Notes: generated from the sequence alone by a model not told the origin. 64,000 bases of DNA from Nitrososphaerales archaeon (GCA_965197925.1 CBDAOC010000020.1:448001-512000); one strand, 5' to 3'. Numbered from the stretch's first letter, positions 3,890 to 19,387 are shown. Translations and numbers: made by a program.

Positions 3890-4933
3890 GAGCTTATCCG
3901 AAAATTAACATCACGGCCTGATTGTTTATACCGAAACAGATCTAGATCTGTTCTCTCTAGCTAAATTTGTGATAAAAGCTAAGAAAAAGAGCATGCCGAC
4001 CATATGGCATATACCAGACGATCTATGGGAAGAGTTCGAACTAGTGCTGCCGCCAAGGAAACCAGCAAGAACAGTTGGAAGGCCAGCTGTGCCATTTAGA
4101 AAAGTGTTGAATGGAATACTGTACGTATTAAGAACTGGATGCCAGCGGAAGAAGGTGCCGAAAGAATTTGGTTCTGGCTCAACTTGCCATGCAAGATTTC
4201 AGGAATGGATTGGGATAGGAGTATTCGAGAAGGTATGGAAGAGGCTGCTGGAAATATATGATGAATTGAAGAGCATGGGATGGGACTGGCAATCCATGGA
4301 TAGCGTACCGAAGGCCCCATTAGGGGGAAAACGACCGGAGCAAACCCAACGGATAGAGACAAGCTAGGTACCAAACGTCACATGCTGGTTGATAGAAGAA
4401 GTATTCCTCTCTCATCTGTAATTACTGGAGCAAACAAGCACGATATGAAATCAGCCTTTCCTACAATAGATAGCATTGTTGTTGATAGGCCCAAAGTTAA
4501 ACAGAACATATGCATGAATAGGATATGATATGATTTCCCTGAGATAGAGTATGGAGTTAGGAAGGGGATATGTGGATCACATTCGTCGTAAGGGTGAAGT
4601 GTTGAAAAAGAATTTGTACAAAGCAAAGAGATGGGTTGTAGAAAGAACCGCATCTTGGCATAACAGGTTCAGAAAGTTATTGGTAAGGTTCGAGAAGAAG
4701 GAAAATTATCAGGCGCTAGTAGAATTTGCTAACTGCCTAATAGTGTATAGAGCGATATATTGGTAGTGTCATAAACACGTTAATGCAACTGTTTCTAGTA
4801 TCTACTATCTACAATACTAATAAAATCAATAGTAAGAAAACTAAACCCGACAGTATGAACTAATATTCTTGCATTCTAAATGATATCATTTCTACCAATC
4901 ATTAACTATCAGCTAGAATTTTAGGATAGGCTC
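3890..4933 (+). mobile_element. IS5-family element, family B copy 1
   Basis: TIRs GAGCTTATCCGAAAATT / AATTTTAGGATAGGCTC; TTA duplicated on both sides; orfA (ILYVLRTGCQ) and orfB (RWVVER..SWHNRFR). Confidence 0.92.
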
Positions 4934-7326: not shown

Positions 7327-8061
7327 TTATGCTATGCCGGCTTGATTGCTTTGTTCTATAGCCTTTTCTGGATAAGAAAATTGATCCTTTAGGATGTTCT
7401 TTTTCTCCTCCTCTTCATCGAGCTCGCTCATGCTAAATGGCTTTATTCCAAGCATATCTAATAATACCTTTAGAATACTTTGAACGGTTTTTGGTTGAAT
7501 GAAGTTGGGGTTATCTATCTCCCCAAGTATACAAGCTGCATCCAAACCACGCTCCTTTGCTATACCAAGAATGAGGCCATTGAAACCTGTTATTTGGCCT
7601 TCGCCTTCTAGCATTGATATGCCTTTGTTCTTCATTTGTTCTACTAGAGCTTCGCTGTTAACAGCACCTAAGACTTTAGGTTCTGCGCCAGTCTCTTGCC
7701 TTAGCGCCGCCCCAATGGAATAGAGTCGTTTGGCATTCATGCGTTGTGCCATTTGTACGACTTCATAACATATCTCATACAACCTCTTGGGATCTATTGG
7801 ATTGAATTCACCAGAAAAAATTAATAGATTCTCCCTTTCTAGATAATAGAACTTATAACTTGATTGACTATAATCGATCAGACCATTCTTGTAGAAAACA
7901 AATGGAGGCCAGTAGGAATAGATTTCTGCGAATAGTTGTGCGTTCAGCTTCTCTATCATGTACCTAACTCCAATGCCAGCAACATTGCCCATGTCAGGAA
8001 GTGCTGCAAGCATATTAGGTGACTTAAGCTTTGGAAAGCTATGAATTTTTATTCCTAACAT
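7327..8061 (-). CDS. PAC2-family proteasome assembly chaperone
   Basis: ALPDMGNVAG, ITGFNGLILG, CILGE motifs. Confidence 0.85.
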   Translation of the reverse strand: MLGIKIHSFPKLKSPNMLAALPDMGNVAGIGVRYMIEKLNAQLFAEIYSYWPPFVFYKNGLIDYSQSSYKFYYLERENLLIFSGEFNPIDPKRLYEICYEVVQMAQRMNAKRLYSIGAALRQETGAEPKVLGAVNSEALVEQMKNKGISMLEGEGQITGFNGLILGIAKERGLDAACILGEIDNPNFIQPKTVQSILKVLLDMLGIKPFSMSELDEEEEKKNILKDQFSYPEKAIEQSNQAGIA

Positions 8062-8119
8062 CTAAGGGGGGGAAAGGTAAAACTTCGATAAAAACCCTTA
8101 GCTTTCAACTAGTGCAAGT

Positions 8120-8665
8120 TTAGTCTTGGCTATTGAATGCTTCAATCATGTAGAACTCAACGAATGCGCTAGCGAAAAGAATGGTGGCAACTATAACAAA
8201 CTCGATCATAAAAGTAGTAAGCAATGAGACTATTAGGCGCTGGTTACGGGCAATTGGATTTTTGAATATTCTAATAATTGAATTTGTCAATATTGCACTT
8301 CTTGACATAGCTATTCCATATGAACAGATTTCCATGACGCCGAAAGGAGTTGCGAGCAAAGCTAGGGGGGAGATGTTTGTTAGCTCCGGAGTGGTCTGAA
8401 CGAGGGCGTTGAACATTATTCCTGTGGAGAACGCGGCTGTGACTCCTACCAGAATTCCAAGCGCAGGTACAAACATAAGGATTGCGATTCTAAAATTGTG
8501 CAGGAAAATATCTATAGCATTTATCATTTCTACCATTTCTGAAAATTCGTCCTTTAGTTTCGTTGCTGTGTCGTAGGTCAATTCGGAAGCGGCTCCTACT
8601 AAATAAGCAATAACAAAAACAGCAACTGCGATTGTTACAAAAAGCAGTCTTTTATTCATGGTCAT
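8120..8665 (-). CDS. SpoIIM-family membrane protein
   Basis: IFLHNFRIA..FVP, TPFGVME, SAFVE; multiple TM helices. Confidence 0.8.
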   Translation of the reverse strand: MTMNKRLLFVTIAVAVFVIAYLVGAASELTYDTATKLKDEFSEMVEMINAIDIFLHNFRIAILMFVPALGILVGVTAAFSTGIMFNALVQTTPELTNISPLALLATPFGVMEICSYGIAMSRSAILTNSIIRIFKNPIARNQRLIVSLLTTFMIEFVIVATILFASAFVEFYMIEAFNSQD

Positions 8666-8703: not shown

Positions 8704-9903
8704 CTAAAGTAATGTAGTTGTGATAGCATCTTCTTTGAAAACATTCTTAACAATCGATGGTGAAATTGCCAAGGAAAGTTTTTTTGTTCTACCATATCTT
8801 CCATGACTGATCACTGGAGCTGAAATTAGACCAAGAGTATCTAGAGAGCTGATGATCATGCTAGTACGGCGTTGGGTGACAGGTTGTAATCCGAGTTTCT
8901 TACAGAGTTCAAGATATTGTTCAAAGACGTCTCCGGTAGATAATTTTTTAGAAAGCATTACGCTATATACTATAAGTTTTTCGTGTATTGATAAAGAACG
9001 TAAAGCCTCACTCGAAGTATCTTGTTCAATCTTTTGGGCAGCAATTCTAACATGTTTTTCATCTACGAAAAGATCGCCTTGTCGTTCCGCGACATCTCCT
9101 GATACACGTAGTAAATCTACGGCTCTTCTAGCATCACCATGTTCTGAACCTGCCATTGCTGCACAAAGATTTATCGCTGATTCGTTTACTATATTTTCAT
9201 GAAACCCAAATAATGTTCTTTCTTTCAAGATTCCACGCAACTCATCAACTTTGTAAGGAGGAAAGACTATTTCTTCTTCGCTCAAACTACTAAGCACCCT
9301 GGGATCAAGAAAGTCCTTGAAGTTAAGGTCGTTTGATATCCCTATCAAGCTCAAAGATCCTTTGGTTAATCTAGAATTTGATCTGGTCATTTCATATAAT
9401 ATCTTGTCGCCATGTTTTTTCACAAGTTCATCTATTTCATCAAGAATGAATACTGTGTTTATACCTAGATCATCTATGTATGATAATACTTTTGTGAATA
9501 AATCGCCAGACGCGAGCCCTGTTGGAGGAAGTTCCAGACCTATTTGGTTTCCAATTTGTACCAGAGCTGTATACTCTCTACTACTTTTGGTGTTTGTATA
9601 TGCTATTGCTATTTTTAGTTTTACTTTTTTTGCATGGTCTTTTAATCTCTTTAATACATATGAGACTACTGCTGTTTTGCCTGTACCAGGTTTACCATAT
9701 AGGAAAATGTTAGATGCTCTTACACCCTTTAGTAATGGAGAAAGAATTTCACCTACTTCCTTAATCTCTTTAGTTCTAAATAACAAACGGTCTGGAACAT
9801 AATCCGCCGTCAAAACTGTTCTATCCCTTATCAAAGGTTTTCGAGAAACGGCCTTCCTAAATACATCATTTAAAATATCCTCAGTCAACTTTGACACCCA
9901 CAC
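8704..9903 (-). CDS. cdc6: Orc1/Cdc6 replication initiator
   Basis: Walker A GKPGTGKT, Walker B ILDEID, HGDARRAVDLLR, C-terminal wHTH with GRYGRT. Confidence 0.97.
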   Translation of the reverse strand: MWVSKLTEDILNDVFRKAVSRKPLIRDRTVLTADYVPDRLLFRTKEIKEVGEILSPLLKGVRASNIFLYGKPGTGKTAVVSYVLKRLKDHAKKVKLKIAIAYTNTKSSREYTALVQIGNQIGLELPPTGLASGDLFTKVLSYIDDLGINTVFILDEIDELVKKHGDKILYEMTRSNSRLTKGSLSLIGISNDLNFKDFLDPRVLSSLSEEEIVFPPYKVDELRGILKERTLFGFHENIVNESAINLCAAMAGSEHGDARRAVDLLRVSGDVAERQGDLFVDEKHVRIAAQKIEQDTSSEALRSLSIHEKLIVYSVMLSKKLSTGDVFEQYLELCKKLGLQPVTQRRTSMIISSLDTLGLISAPVISHGRYGRTKKLSLAISPSIVKNVFKEDAITTTLL

Positions 9904-10432
9904 ACCATACCTTCTTATGCAAAATATTAATCTTAATAATTATTTTTTTTATATACTCTTATCCTAATATCTTTTAACAAATAAAGTCAATTATTATTAT
10001 AATTTCAGTCATTAGTTTATCATGTTATTTGATATTTAAAATCTAAAAGGCGTATAAATGATATTTGCTGATTCCATTAGATCATATGGTGTGTGAGGGT
10101 ATATTTATCTAAGAATTTCTTGTAGAAGAGAATATCACCTGATATACGTGTTAAGGAAGTGTTATCCCAGTGATAGAAAGGATTAGAATGGACTCTATTG
10201 CGGTATTGTAATGTTAACTTGGTTGTTAATTCTGTTAAGTAACTGCCTGACACCTCCATTTCCACTGGAAATACATTTTACACCTGATTATAACACCTCC
10301 ATTTCCACTGGATGTTAACTTGTTAACAAGTTCCATATTACCTCATAATGATCAATAAGTTCGATGGATCAAGTTAACACATTCTGGCGTATCTAGCTTA
10401 AGTGTTAACATGTTTAGGATCTGAGAACAACA
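9904..10432. promoter_or_regulatory. Probable replication origin oriC (AT-rich tract ~9920-10050; ORB boxes at 10250-10270 and 10293-10312)
   Basis: Two direct copies of ACACCTCCATTTCCACTGGA (reverse strand TCCAGTGGAAATGGAGGTGT, matching the ORB core plus G-string) upstream of cdc6. Confidence 0.85.
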
Positions 10433-10813
10433 TTGCGCAAGAAGATTAGGATTGAACTAGATGATGGGCAAGGCGGGAAGTACTCCCTGTCCCTAGAGGG
10501 TAATGTAACCCGGGAAAAAATTCTTAATGTTTTTGAGCTTATGCAATTACTAGACATGGAACAAACCTCAAAAGAGACAACACCTAACTCTAACTCAGTA
10601 GGTTCTAAAATCTGGACACTCGTAGACAATAAATTTAACTTTGGAGACTTTAATTCTTCTACATTACTGGAATCCTATGAAGACGAATATAGAGAACCCG
10701 TCAAACTAAGCATAATTTCTACATACCTTTCCAGATTTGCAGATAAGGGTATGCTGACTAGAAGTAAGAGTGGGAAGGAATGGTTATACCGAAAAGTAGT
10801 ACTCAAGCATTAG
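10433..10813 (+). CDS. Small predicted winged-helix DNA-binding protein next to oriC
   Basis: C-terminal LSIISTYLSRFADKGMLTRSKSGKEWLYR has a recognition-helix plus wing pattern. Confidence 0.7.
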   Translation: MRKKIRIELDDGQGGKYSLSLEGNVTREKILNVFELMQLLDMEQTSKETTPNSNSVGSKIWTLVDNKFNFGDFNSSTLLESYEDEYREPVKLSIISTYLSRFADKGMLTRSKSGKEWLYRKVVLKH

Positions 10814-11342
10814 TATCTACACCAGCTACTTCAAACAACACATTCTTTCCGTCCTCTGTAATTGCATAGCTATAAGGCTTATCTGCCATGTCTCTACTAA
10901 CATATCCAAGTTCGAAGAGCTTCTTCATCAATCTTGCTGTATGTTCCCTAGACCTACCTATTACATTTTTAATTTGCCTAGAAGTTCTTGGACCTTCAAT
11001 TAAAATTTTGAGCACATACTCTACTAATCCTTTACCCTCCTGTTCTAAATTTCTTCTCATCATCTTTGGCATGTGATTAGAAGTATTACCATCACACTCA
11101 TCACGAATTTCATATGATGACCGTGATGAGCCATAACCAGACGACCGCAACTCTAAAAGATCAAGTTTAATACGAACGTCTGTCATAAAATCTTCATATC
11201 TGCCTAACCTTTCATCTAAACTTGTAAGAGAAAACAATGCTGAGCCCCTATATTTGTAGAATAACATTACGCTTGCCAAGCCTGTGATGTATACTATCAC
11301 AAACATCAATACACTCTCAAGCTCAACTAACATCACAATCAC
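10803..11342 (-). CDS. Membrane-anchored winged-helix protein
   Basis: Hydrophobic N-terminal helix, coiled segment, C-terminal GPRTSRQIKNVIGRSREHTARLMKKLFELGYVSR..PYSYAITEDG. Confidence 0.75.
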   Translation of the reverse strand: MIVMLVELESVLMFVIVYITGLASVMLFYKYRGSALFSLTSLDERLGRYEDFMTDVRIKLDLLELRSSGYGSSRSSYEIRDECDGNTSNHMPKMMRRNLEQEGKGLVEYVLKILIEGPRTSRQIKNVIGRSREHTARLMKKLFELGYVSRDMADKPYSYAITEDGKNVLFEVAGVDTNA

Positions 11343-11425
11343 AAAACCTCTACTAATATATCACCATAGAGGATAATGTTCGTTGATAATTTACTCGTAT
11401 AACGCTTGGTTCTCATAGGAACACC

Positions 11426-11785
11426 TCACACTTTTGACAACCTTTTGACTAATTCATCCATCACATCAATCACATCACGCGCTGATCCTTCGTCAACATC
11501 ACTTTCTTTTGTCACGTTTATCTGTTGAGCCACCCGTTTAATAACCTCCTTCGTATTAATATCCCATAAGCCTATTAATTCAATTAACACAAGGCTATAG
11601 ATGACAGCTCTGATCTTTGCTCTACTCTGCTTCAATAGTCTATAATAAGCCCCTTTGCTCCTCCCGCGTACACTTAACTCTCCCTTAAGCCTCTTACAAA
11701 TTATGTCTAATTGACTGTGTGTTATTAAAGAATTTTCAATTATGAATTGCAATATATCAGTATTTTTTATTCCACCACTATCCAT
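11426..11785 (-). CDS. Hypothetical protein, helical and possibly HTH-like
   Basis: Intact 119-aa ORF co-oriented with the wHTH gene; RSKGAYYRLLKQSR. Confidence 0.65.
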   Translation of the reverse strand: MDSGGIKNTDILQFIIENSLITHSQLDIICKRLKGELSVRGRSKGAYYRLLKQSRAKIRAVIYSLVLIELIGLWDINTKEVIKRVAQQINVTKESDVDEGSARDVIDVMDELVKRLSKV

Positions 11786-11855: not shown

Positions 11856-12602
11856 ATGGGACCTATAGAGAAGAAGCTCTGCCGACAAGCTAAAACTAAC
11901 ACATTGTGCTTTGTGCTAATTGATTCTGAATCACTCTCAATCAGCAGGGCGTGCAGTATGGCAGAAAAAGCGGAGAATGCAGGTGCCGCTGCTATACTTG
12001 TTGGCGGCTCTTCAACAATGGATCAGATAGAGCTAAACAGTGTAGTTACATCGGTAAAAAAAACCGTTAGTATCCCGGTCATACTCTTTCCAGGAAACGT
12101 TACAGGAATATCGTCTTATGCAGACGCAATACTTTTCAGCTCTTTATTAAATTCTGATAATACATACTTTATAACCCAGGCCCAAGCCCTTGGTGCAGTC
12201 GCCGTAAAAAAACACAATATCGAGGCAATACCCATGGCCTATATCATAATAGGAGAGGGAAGTTCAGTCTGGTTTGTAGGCAGAGCAAGGGGAATACCTT
12301 TCGATAAACCGAAACTAGCGGTAATGTACGCTCTTGCCGCTCAATATATGGGCATGAGATCTCTATATTTAGAGGCTGGTTCGGGCGCATCGTCTCATGT
12401 AAGTCCTCAGATGGTTAATGCCGTAAGGCAAAACTATGATGGATTGCTCATAGTTGGAGGAGGTATAAGGGAAGTGAAAACAGCTAGAGACCTGGCAAAA
12501 GCGGGTGCAGATGTGATAGTAATAGGAACGATATTTGAGAAAAGGGGCTCCGAAAAATTATTGAGAGATATAGCAAATGCCACCAAGTCTGTTAAAAAAT
12601 AA
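11856..12602 (+). CDS. Geranylgeranylglyceryl phosphate synthase
   Basis: LVGGS, ILFPG, SLLNS, YLEAGSGA, IVGGGIR. Confidence 0.95.
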   Translation: MGPIEKKLCRQAKTNTLCFVLIDSESLSISRACSMAEKAENAGAAAILVGGSSTMDQIELNSVVTSVKKTVSIPVILFPGNVTGISSYADAILFSSLLNSDNTYFITQAQALGAVAVKKHNIEAIPMAYIIIGEGSSVWFVGRARGIPFDKPKLAVMYALAAQYMGMRSLYLEAGSGASSHVSPQMVNAVRQNYDGLLIVGGGIREVKTARDLAKAGADVIVIGTIFEKRGSEKLLRDIANATKSVKK

Positions 12603-17620: not shown

Positions 17621-18489
17621 CAACTCATCTCAAAACTAACCATTTAGACAATTTTTAGCGGCCATTTAGATCTATGAATAGCGACATCTAAAATTATTTT
17701 ATGAAATTCCAAGAATTATCAGACAAACAGTGGAGTATGATGGAATCACACATACCACCACATGCAAAAACTGGCAGGCCTAGGGATGATGATAGAAAAA
17801 TCATTAACGGAATAATCCATGTTCTAACTACTGGATGCCGATGGGACGATATGCCAAAAAGATATGGTGATGATTCTACTGCAAACAGAAGGTTAAACAA
17901 ATGGCAACAAAAAGGAATCTGGAAAAAGATTCTATCACGTACTATTCACTCAGCACATAAATCTGGCAAAATTAGTCTACAAATATCAGTTGACTCCATC
18001 CATTCCTAATAAAAAAGGGGCAATGTAACTGGATATAATGGATTCAAGAGAATAACAGGTACAAAAATACATGCCGCAGTAGAGAGTAACGGATTTCCAA
18101 TATCCATACTGTTGAGTCCAGCAAATGAACATGACAGTACAAAATGCATGGATGTTACAGGATCAATTTCAGACTATCTTGATGATGATTCAATACAACA
18201 GATAGAATCAGTTTATGCAGACAAAATGATGCAAAATACATCAGAATGTATTTGTGGGATAGAAATATTGCATGTTGCATCCCATACAAAATAAATTCCA
18301 AGTTCATCTTGCAAAATAACGATTACAAACATTACAGCAAGACAAGATTTGTAGTTGAGAGATTCCTTGCATGGCTCAAGAATGGATTTCACAGAACAAG
18401 AATCAGATATGAAAGAACGGCAGAAAACTACCTGGCATTTGTTAATCTCGCATCATTTTTGATGTATTGTAGGGTTTTGAGATGAGTTG
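17621..18489 (+). mobile_element. IS5-family element, family C copy 1 (defective)
   Basis: Perfect TIR CAACTCATCTCAAAAC / GTTTTGAGATGAGTTG; VLTTGCRWDDMP, GTKIH and RFVVER lie in different frames. Confidence 0.92.
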
Positions 18490-19387
18490 GATATCTCCAG
18501 TTCCAATTCTTTTATCATATCTTTTGTCGAGTCATAATATGTTCTCCAAACATTCTCTTGAATGATGAGAACACGGATTCCATAATCAATCACTGTCCAT
18601 AGATTACGTTATCCTTCCAGTAATTGTAATTGGTCAGCTGCGATATCACAGATATCTTTCTTGGATAACAGCCTCTTGCCTTACCAGTTGAATTCTTTCC
18701 CAATGTAGTACTGGAATTATTCCCTTGTGATACAGACATGAGAAATTATTCTTGGAATCATATGCGCCGTCTTCCAGTACCTTTGTAATCTTGGACTTAT
18801 TGGCAGCTTGTTCCGCAAGAGAAGATTTTGGGCATCATGAGATGCTCATCTGTACTTTTGTACGATATCATCTTCTTGGATTTGATGCCAGCACCCACAT
18901 GTATCTTGAGAAATCCTCCTCTTGCTTTCCATTTATGTCTCATCTACTCTCCATGGTTAGCTATGATATCTGTAGAATCAATGGTAATGACAATATCCCT
19001 TCCTATATTTGGATTGACCTTGATGTCCAGTTTATTGATTCTACGGTTGATGGAGCTGTAGTTTGTTACCTTGGGAATACGTTTGGAATAATGTGCCTGC
19101 ACCATTCCTTGGGTTTATCTGTATGGCAATCCAAAATATGCACGTGTGTATTCCAGTAATTTCATGAAGGATTCTAGATATTGGTATTGTCTTCCTTCCT
19201 TTCCCTTGTTCATCTTATCTAGTTTTGTCTTCCAGGAATCTATCACGTCAAATGATATGATAATCTCACCTCTTCTTACTAGCGAATGATTGTATGTTTT
19301 CCAATTCATGAAATGACAGAAAATGTTATGATCTAAAGCTGGATTGGTAGAACAATCTAGATCAATTGGTTAATTAGGCAACAAGGC
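18490..19387 (-). mobile_element. IS5-family (IS903-like) remnant, truncated at the family C insertion
   Basis: MNWKTYNHSLVRRGEI..GKEGRQYQY..FGLPYR start; decayed downstream DDE (DSTDIK, LEDGAYDSK); end GCCTTGTTGC at 19378-19387. Confidence 0.75.

Follow-up and report, generated by a model that had tools for sequence, protein, structure and literature searches.

A three-gene module with two short-motif arrays beside a candidate Orc1/Cdc6 replication origin, conserved from Nitrososphaerales to Bathyarchaeia

What do three small, conserved genes do directly beside an archaeal replication origin, and which proteins read the two sets of short motifs that lie around them? The locus that raises this question belongs to a window of 64,000 nucleotides (the whole stretch of DNA analysed here), which is part of contig C20 in the 2.9-Mb genome of a Nitrososphaerales archaeon. 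The initiator gene orc1/cdc6, of the Orc1-1 type, occupies positions 8704..9903 on the minus strand (NCBIfam TIGR02928 at 373.6 bits against a cut-off of 181.3, together with Pfam Cdc6_C and Cdc6_lid), and a second, distant cdc6 lies on a different contig of the same genome. The likely core origin (9894..10100) is a degenerate, inward-facing pair of ORB-like boxes (9894-9922 and 10072-10100), recognized as an inverted repeat, that brackets a stretch of 83% A+T at 9920-10070, and the columns of this inner pair are conserved in seven family members. Two identical 20-bp accessory ORB boxes follow as a direct repeat at 10250-10269 and 10293-10312, and the 12-mer ORB core has no other occurrence in the genome. 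The features of an oriC1-type origin are present, namely an adjacent Orc1-1-type cdc6 and ORBs flanking an A+T-rich element (with a degenerate inner pair), and from the known ORB/Orc1 layout (PMC4010727) we infer that 9894-10100 and the ORBs form an active origin. GC skew along the contig gave no decisive signal for the start of replication. Genes for a PAC2 proteasome chaperone and a SpoIIM-like membrane protein are found downstream of cdc6 (7327-8665 in the window), as they are in several loci of the order (L074 and L085-L090).

A gap of 529 bp separates cdc6 from gene A (10433..10813, plus strand, 126 aa), which is followed by gene B (10803..11342, minus strand, 179 aa), gene C (11426..11785, minus strand, 119 aa) and a conserved outer neighbor, the gene for GGGP synthase (GGGPS; 11856..12602, plus strand, TIGR01769 above the cut-off). 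A preliminary description had placed three intact genes directly beyond the ORB boxes; all three reading frames are open over these coordinates, the identical boxes were confirmed, and each gene is single-copy in the genome. It had also set the intactness of these genes against a decay of accessory genes in the window, which was checked loosely and agrees with the transposase-like fragments seen. These fragmented ORFs, IS5-like by eye, lie at 3969-4766, 17701-18485 and 19115-19309, and a motif 1-like TGTGAATGTTAACA stretch is present in related copies elsewhere in the genome. In two RNA runs from one study, A, cdc6 and GGGPS are covered by short contigs and B and C by almost none, although the contigs are too thin for ranking genes and the coverage of gene A, by two short contigs, is weak.

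Among 301 Thermoproteota genomes, gene A was detected in 201 (E up to 0.001), gene B in 169 (E up to 1e-8) and gene C in 157 (E up to 1e-6), nearly always as one copy per genome; in this search none of them was found in families f22, f29, f36, f37, f40, f41, and f49, and a broader profile of A gave one weak match in f31. Gene B stood beside A in all 30 order-level loci compared, with cdc6 within 1.5 kb in 23. Besides, 60 longer loci were chosen for having A, 20 within the order and 40 outside. Of the loci inside the order, 20/20 had B and C no farther than 4.5 kb away and 15 of the 18 with a full flank had an adjacent cdc6, whereas outside the order B was linked in 23/40, C in 14/40 and cdc6 in 14/37. 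Of these 60 loci, 40 have an ORB no more than 450 bp upstream of A, whereas for control windows the count was 0 of 593; the 40 include 13 of the 23 non-order loci that lack an adjacent cdc6. Eighty named Bathyarchaeia loci picked by their likeness to B contained A in 73 cases and C in 78. Although the counted loci include kin and are not independent of one another, the synteny with cdc6 proposed in the preliminary description has held up, since both the origin linkage and the two motif arrays described below are conserved from Nitrososphaerales to Bathyarchaeia, and linkage of GGGPS to the module is conserved in relatives as well.

Where cdc6 has moved, a conserved HTH-like protein of about 100 aa occupies its usual place on the far side of the ORBs (L047:3648-3941, L048:6382-6678, L051:6179-6502, L054:5995-6294, L055:3646-3948, L059:3801-4103, and L060:6116-6478) and is possibly a further origin factor. 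Relocated copies of A in f28, f34, and f47 (L035, L036, L037) are one or two genes away from pcna, still in a replication neighborhood. Outside the order, an HTH_3-CBS regulator is found beside A or B in L032, L034, L043, L047, L048, L050, L062, L066, and L070, and hypF recurs beside A or B in several loci.

Some order-level assemblies seem to have lost A, B, and cdc6 together, but this was not used as evidence, because GGGPS was missing too in 18/18 genomes without A and present in 2/2 controls, which indicates an assembly or binning gap. The missing block comprises A and the essential GGGPS, as well as B and the Orc1-1-type cdc6 where tested, and affects G353, G361, G368, G375, G381, G385, G391, G393, G396, G025, and others, from families f9, f14, and f18. 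Since some of these assemblies are more than 90% complete, a systematic assembly or binning gap is the likely cause; in genus g167 the absence may be a true loss.

Protein A had been described as a soluble wHTH-like protein, and its structure model agrees, with a confident wHTH at residues ~50-122 preceded by a beta-beta-alpha part of low model confidence. The best structural match of the wHTH is Fur (VIA-align Z 11.2, rmsd 1.9, 70 aligned), and its structural matches are generic wHTHs; for the N-terminal part, which was barely tested, a known fold was not found. No family was assigned to protein A by Pfam or NCBIfam cut-offs or by PDB sequence search. Penicillinase_R reached 18.1 bits on the window's A against a cut-off of 22.6 and matched 17 of 35 relatives at E up to 0.01, but BlaI and CopY carry the wHTH at the N-terminus and dimerization helices at the C-terminus, whereas the wHTH of A, which we call Fur/BlaI-like, is C-terminal. 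The helix S96-T97-Y98-L99-x-R101 is invariant in 26 members of the order. An atlas search for A, B, and C returned only archaeal clusters labeled 'hypothetical' or HTH/MarR.

The likely sites of protein A are the boxes of motif 1, TGT(G/T)AA, which in the window appears as TGTTAA(C) and forms an array at 10149..10410. Five GTTAAC in 200 bp at the window origin make the densest cluster among the 600 such sites of the genome, and TGT(G/T)AA occurs there 11 times against 1.6 expected, a number that 0 of 100 shuffles reached. The cluster that the preliminary description had placed upstream of A is not merely upstream: the boxes are interleaved with the ORBs, which makes them part of the origin. 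They are kept in place in seven family members, start 0-1 bp from the ORB ends, and form direct repeats with a preferred spacing of 8-12 bp. Moreover, a de novo search upstream of A in 40 loci outside the order ranked TGTGAA first among 6-mers (83 against 11, present in 31 of the 40), and fresh loci confirmed the motif; as the background of the 6-mer search was mostly coding DNA, shuffles of origin regions were used for the array counts. In Bathyarchaeia, at least three sites were present in all 46 testable loci (of 73 with A), with 290 sites against 53.5. Counting at ORB clusters excluded 7 of 95 rows for having fewer than two ORBs (four cdc6 loci from f22, f31, and f40 and three others).

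The ORBs of f12 (L074, L076, L085-L089) have a variant TTCCACTCCAGG-like core that the standard pattern missed, and motif 1 boxes are still in place in these loci. The second-densest GTTAAC cluster of the genome (C14:58480-59000, four in 200 bp) lies beside three copies of a direct repeat of ~30 bp and is a possible origin for an element that is integrated or extrachromosomal. At C20:958080-958600 there is a long head-to-tail array of identical ~30-bp repeats, without spacers, that contains TTAACA.

Relocation of gene A separates the array from the gene. Where A lies about 2.5 kb off the ORBs, as in two f8 loci, the ORBs have the array and the promoter of A does not; in G332, where the distance is 256 kb, and in two f28 genomes, where it is about 500-580 kb, the array likewise stays at the ORBs. 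Taking together the f28 and f47 genomes in which A is 22 to ~580 kb away, the ORB clusters hold 4-6 sites against 0.6-1.4. We consequently rejected the idea that array 1 is the operator of A itself, since it remains with the ORBs when A relocates. Protein B was also rejected as the reader of array 1, given that f27, f38, f47, f50, and f62, which lack B, retain the array.

Gene loss gives complementary information. In f21, all 12 loci with B had been labeled as lacking A before a search for A found it in five; these five genomes have 3-6 TGTGAA at the ORB cluster, whereas the seven without A have none, keep cdc6 and ORBs, and in one case hold four TGTTAA against 1.9 (reached in 14 of 100 shuffles). 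All 12 retain B with 8-13 motif 2 sites. The distribution on the tree suggests that the absence of A from the seven f21 genomes reflects one or two losses and not twelve events, and as the array lies between the ORB and A, both could have been deleted together. Additionally, the ORB origins of f37, f45, f53, and f64, which also lack A, show no excess of motif 1 (f36 has 2 against 0.3). These observations bear on the view that Orc1 or an unlinked nucleoid protein reads array 1, the three genes being ancient passengers of a stable origin neighborhood, which we consider improbable. Such a view could draw on co-deletion for f21, on the haloarchaeal oapA precedent (PMC10927574), on the equally linked GGGPS, a lipid enzyme, and on about ten families that have A without array 1 at the ORBs (f26, f32, f43, f44, f55, f57, f63, f65, f66, f68, and partly f52); it is harder to reconcile with the retained cdc6 and ORBs of the f21 genomes that lost A and array together, with the A-less origins devoid of motif excess, and with the tight tracking of B by motif 2. 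Many of the families with A and no array, which also speak against A as the reader of array 1, have an altered start of the recognition helix, although f55, f66, and one f52 member are unaltered.

The same comparisons address protein C, which alone or with A might read array 1, or might help B to read array 2. Across families, the correlation of array 1 is stronger with C (p 3e-5) than with A (p 0.04, from a count in which f21 was still mislabeled), because the families that have A and lack the array also lack C, and C does carry a conserved helix, S-x-G-x-Y/F-x-R-x-x-x-Q. However, f27, in which A is present and both B and C are absent, keeps array 1 in 6/6 loci, the f21 genomes with C and without A have lost it, and in five C-only loci motif 2 is at background, so that we regard a reading role of C as very improbable. 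Overall, the occurrence of array 1 goes with that of gene A and its position with that of the ORBs, and protein A is the likely direct binder of the TGT(G/T)AA boxes, as judged from the genome comparisons. A possible covariation of its residue 94 with TGTGAA versus TGTTAA fits f1, f8, f12, f15, and f35, but not f11, f6, and one f30 member.

Protein B had been presented as a transmembrane, coiled and wHTH protein. An N-terminal hydrophobic helix is evident (Kyte-Doolittle 19-mer 2.5) and the C-terminal wHTH is represented by Pfam matches below threshold, the predicted TM helix coming from hydropathy only and the coiled coil from reading the sequence by eye; the linker between the coiled coil and the wHTH is variable. 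A hydrophobic segment occurs in 80/80 B proteins of the named Bathyarchaeia loci and the TM helix is absent in members of f25, f26, f32, f43, f54, f55, f65, and f68. In alignments of 25 members of the order, R132, E133, H134, and R137 are invariant (R132-E133-H134-x-x-R137, codons 10932-10949, minus strand). The model of protein C is all-helical, as the preliminary description had it, yet no motif of its own could be attributed to it. Of the three DNA-binding genes of that description, A and B have predicted wHTHs, and DNA binding by C is not supported: its possible sigma70-region-4/Tfx-like HTH (residues 18-65) has as best HTH-like match 8HNO (Z 6.2, rmsd 1.1, 47 aligned, 23% identity), within the chance range. 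8HNO is an archaeal transcription factor that we take to be Tfx-like. Neither B nor C matched a family above Pfam or NCBIfam cut-offs or in PDB sequence searches, and among 23 relatives of C a family match was absent as well. Protein C most likely partners B, and its gene would be co-transcribed upstream of B.

The second array, the likely sites of protein B, covers 11072..11517 and consists of (T/C)GTGA(T/C) half-sites. The preliminary description had pointed to ATCAC clusters over B and C, and indeed ten ATCAC on one strand within 420 bp are the genome maximum (the next cluster has six). That these are an artifact of codon usage was rejected, since GTGAT/ATCAC occurs 12 times in B and C against 4.2 under synonymous recoding (0/1500) and is enriched de novo in relatives, where the leading 6-mer near B is TGTGAT (193 occurrences against 45, with 39 of 43 loci having it). 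Motif 2 is (T/C)GTGAT, with a full site YGTGAYRTCACR in relatives; the window has only half-sites and no full palindrome, and they lie over the B linker, the 5' end of B and the 3' end of C. Genome-wide there is a single cluster, 11 in 500 bp against five in the next best, with two full palindromes elsewhere. Bathyarchaeia have at least four sites in 77 of 78 loci, and across 75 loci the density peaks 600-1000 bp before the B stop codon (the end of C and the B promoter) and then again in the linker.

Motif 2 accompanies relocated B (L033, L046, L172, L174, L175) and falls to background in 12 loci without B (12 against ~11). In f25, where K replaces R132, 0-1 sites remain; two f34 loci have few half-sites and one full palindrome each, and L038, L040, L045, L054, L192, and f45 have a canonical helix with only 0-2 sites. 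Array 2 tracks the presence and position of B, and protein B is likely its direct binder. The CRP site is TGTGA-N6-TCACA, and this N6 spacing is minor in array 2 (7) relative to the dominant GTGA-N2-TCAC (54, against 6). The base-reading triad of CRP is Arg180/Glu181/Arg185, whose spacing equals that of R132/E133/R137 in B (PMC2677863). Altogether, the losses and relocations of genes link either array to a single protein, a pairing that the preliminary description had cited from known partition and origin-control systems.

What such pairs are for is a separate matter, and B may simply be an autoregulated one-component membrane regulator, and A a regulator with a promoter gated by Orc1 at the ORB nearby; proximity to the origin would then couple expression to the cell cycle, and neither tethering nor control of firing would be involved. 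Array 2 is centered on the B promoter like an operator, travels with B and is the only cluster in the genome, the folds resemble those of ordinary repressors, and in G117 a single ORB lies ~200-290 bp upstream of A though the inward pair is ~2 kb off, all of which speak for this transcriptional explanation. It is at odds with array 1, which stays at the origin and leaves the promoter of A when the gene moves, with the other intergenic regions of the genome, where motif 1 is barely enriched and no regulon is visible, and with array 2 itself, which enters coding DNA and counts 8-15 sites, a number beyond the usual need of an operator. We consider regulation of this kind, taken as the whole explanation, a strong rival and yet less likely than not.

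The reading that we prefer, and for which we judge the arguments to be about evenly balanced, is an origin-side module in which A likely tunes Orc1/Cdc6 occupancy and B likely tethers origin-side DNA at the membrane. Protein A would bind the boxes among the ORBs, side by side with Orc1 along the accessory ORB arm, and could act as a non-essential brake or timer of the start of replication. As the boxes start so close to the ORB ends, competition with Orc1 is slightly likelier than help, and as several lineages with ORB origins lack A, the protein probably modulates the origin and does not belong to its core initiators. With its TM helix in the membrane and its head on 8-15 local sites, B would hold DNA about 1 kb from oriC, and the same sites would also repress the promoter of B. 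Because eight more distant families have a B without the TM helix, tethering cannot be the role of the protein family as a whole. After leaving the origin, B is found within 12-33 kb of it in four resolved f28 and f34 genomes, a small and related sample, and in f28 this holds though A is ~500 kb away.

Several known systems resemble parts of this module. UBP, a beta-hairpin saddle protein of Sulfolobales and Desulfurococcales, has one site in the unwinding element and more than 300 genomic sites, and its authors ask whether other lineages have analogous factors (PMC12141716). Like UBP with its ucm motif at Sulfolobus oriC1, protein A with motif 1 would be a second sequence-specific protein with its own motif at an Orc1-1/ORB origin. 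Unlike UBP, A is a wHTH protein encoded at the origin, and its motif, which differs from the ucm of the oligonucleotides in PMC12141716, forms an array on the ORB arm instead of a single site in the unwinding element. UBP is not among the listed PDB matches of A, for which the N-terminal part was barely tested.

For protein B, the closest parallels by description are RicO, RocS, and RacA, which, as described in the RicO preprint, also join a DNA-binding head, a coiled coil and a membrane anchor. In RicO of Staphylococcus aureus the DNA-binding domain is N-terminal and an amphipathic helix forms the C-terminal part, and its nine non-palindromic 18-bp sites are spread over 700 kb, one of them upstream of its own gene (bioRxiv 10.64898/2026.03.06.710092). 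In contrast, B has the reverse domain order and a predicted TM helix in place of the amphipathic helix, its palindromic half-sites are packed into a single dense local array, and no RicO-type match to B appeared in the Pfam, PDB, and atlas results. ParABS, SegAB, and AspA-ParB-ParA likewise use a DNA-binding protein that is site-specific, with palindromic sites beside its own gene, AspA being a wHTH protein too (PMC5120986); relatives of B have centromere-like palindromic sites beside the gene, predicted as YGTGAYRTCACR together with half-site arrays. The module differs in having neither a Walker ATPase nor ParB, with a predicted membrane anchor instead, and the genome search for ParA gave only partial PF13614 matches and no clear candidate.

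The analogies with parS and with WhiP made in the preliminary description do not fit, as there is no ParA or ParB, a normal Orc1 accompanies the ORBs, and several entire families do not have the module; WhiP defines an origin without ORBs and Orc1 (PMC4010727), whereas the window has ORBs and cdc6. CRP/FNR proteins share with B the R-E-x-x-x-R triad and a GTGA core (PMC2677863), but no Pfam or NCBIfam match to a cyclic-nucleotide-binding domain was obtained for B. The site of TrmBL1, the TGM, is TATCAC-N5-GTGATA, and the GTGATA half-site of the module is identical to its half-site (PMC4706686); a sugar-binding domain is absent from B. The haloarchaeal oapABC/ArvABC genes are, like the module, three conserved genes directly beside the main origin, and they encode a GTPase-based vesicle system (PMC10927574). 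Since they serve vesicle formation, neighbors of an origin can do other jobs; unlike them, the module encodes wHTH proteins with paired arrays, none of which is reported for oap in the available text of that paper (PMC10927574).

A description of these genes or motifs was not found in the main text of open papers, in agreement with the earlier claim that the system is undescribed. The module is, in our assessment from comparative sequence analysis, real, ancient and undescribed, and the comparisons support the pairing of proteins and sites well. The timing of initiation and the positioning of origins are largely open questions in archaea: UBP, which is restricted to two orders, had no description before 2025 (PMC12141716), and a review of the subject lists the segregation machinery outside SegAB and AspA as unknown (PMC5120986). 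The module offers two protein-site pairs with predicted base-reading residues, and gene A together with array 1 provides a practical marker of origins from which cdc6 has moved away. Ammonia oxidizers and Bathyarchaeia are among the most abundant archaea. It is possible, as a tentative extension of our preferred reading, that Nitrososphaeria and Bathyarchaeia share an ancient device in which A coats the boxes between the ORBs and so gates Orc1, as an archaeal counterpart of the origin brakes of bacteria, and B nails a centromere-like array next to oriC to the membrane; if this is true, archaea without ParA would gain a means of timing initiation and of placing their new origins.
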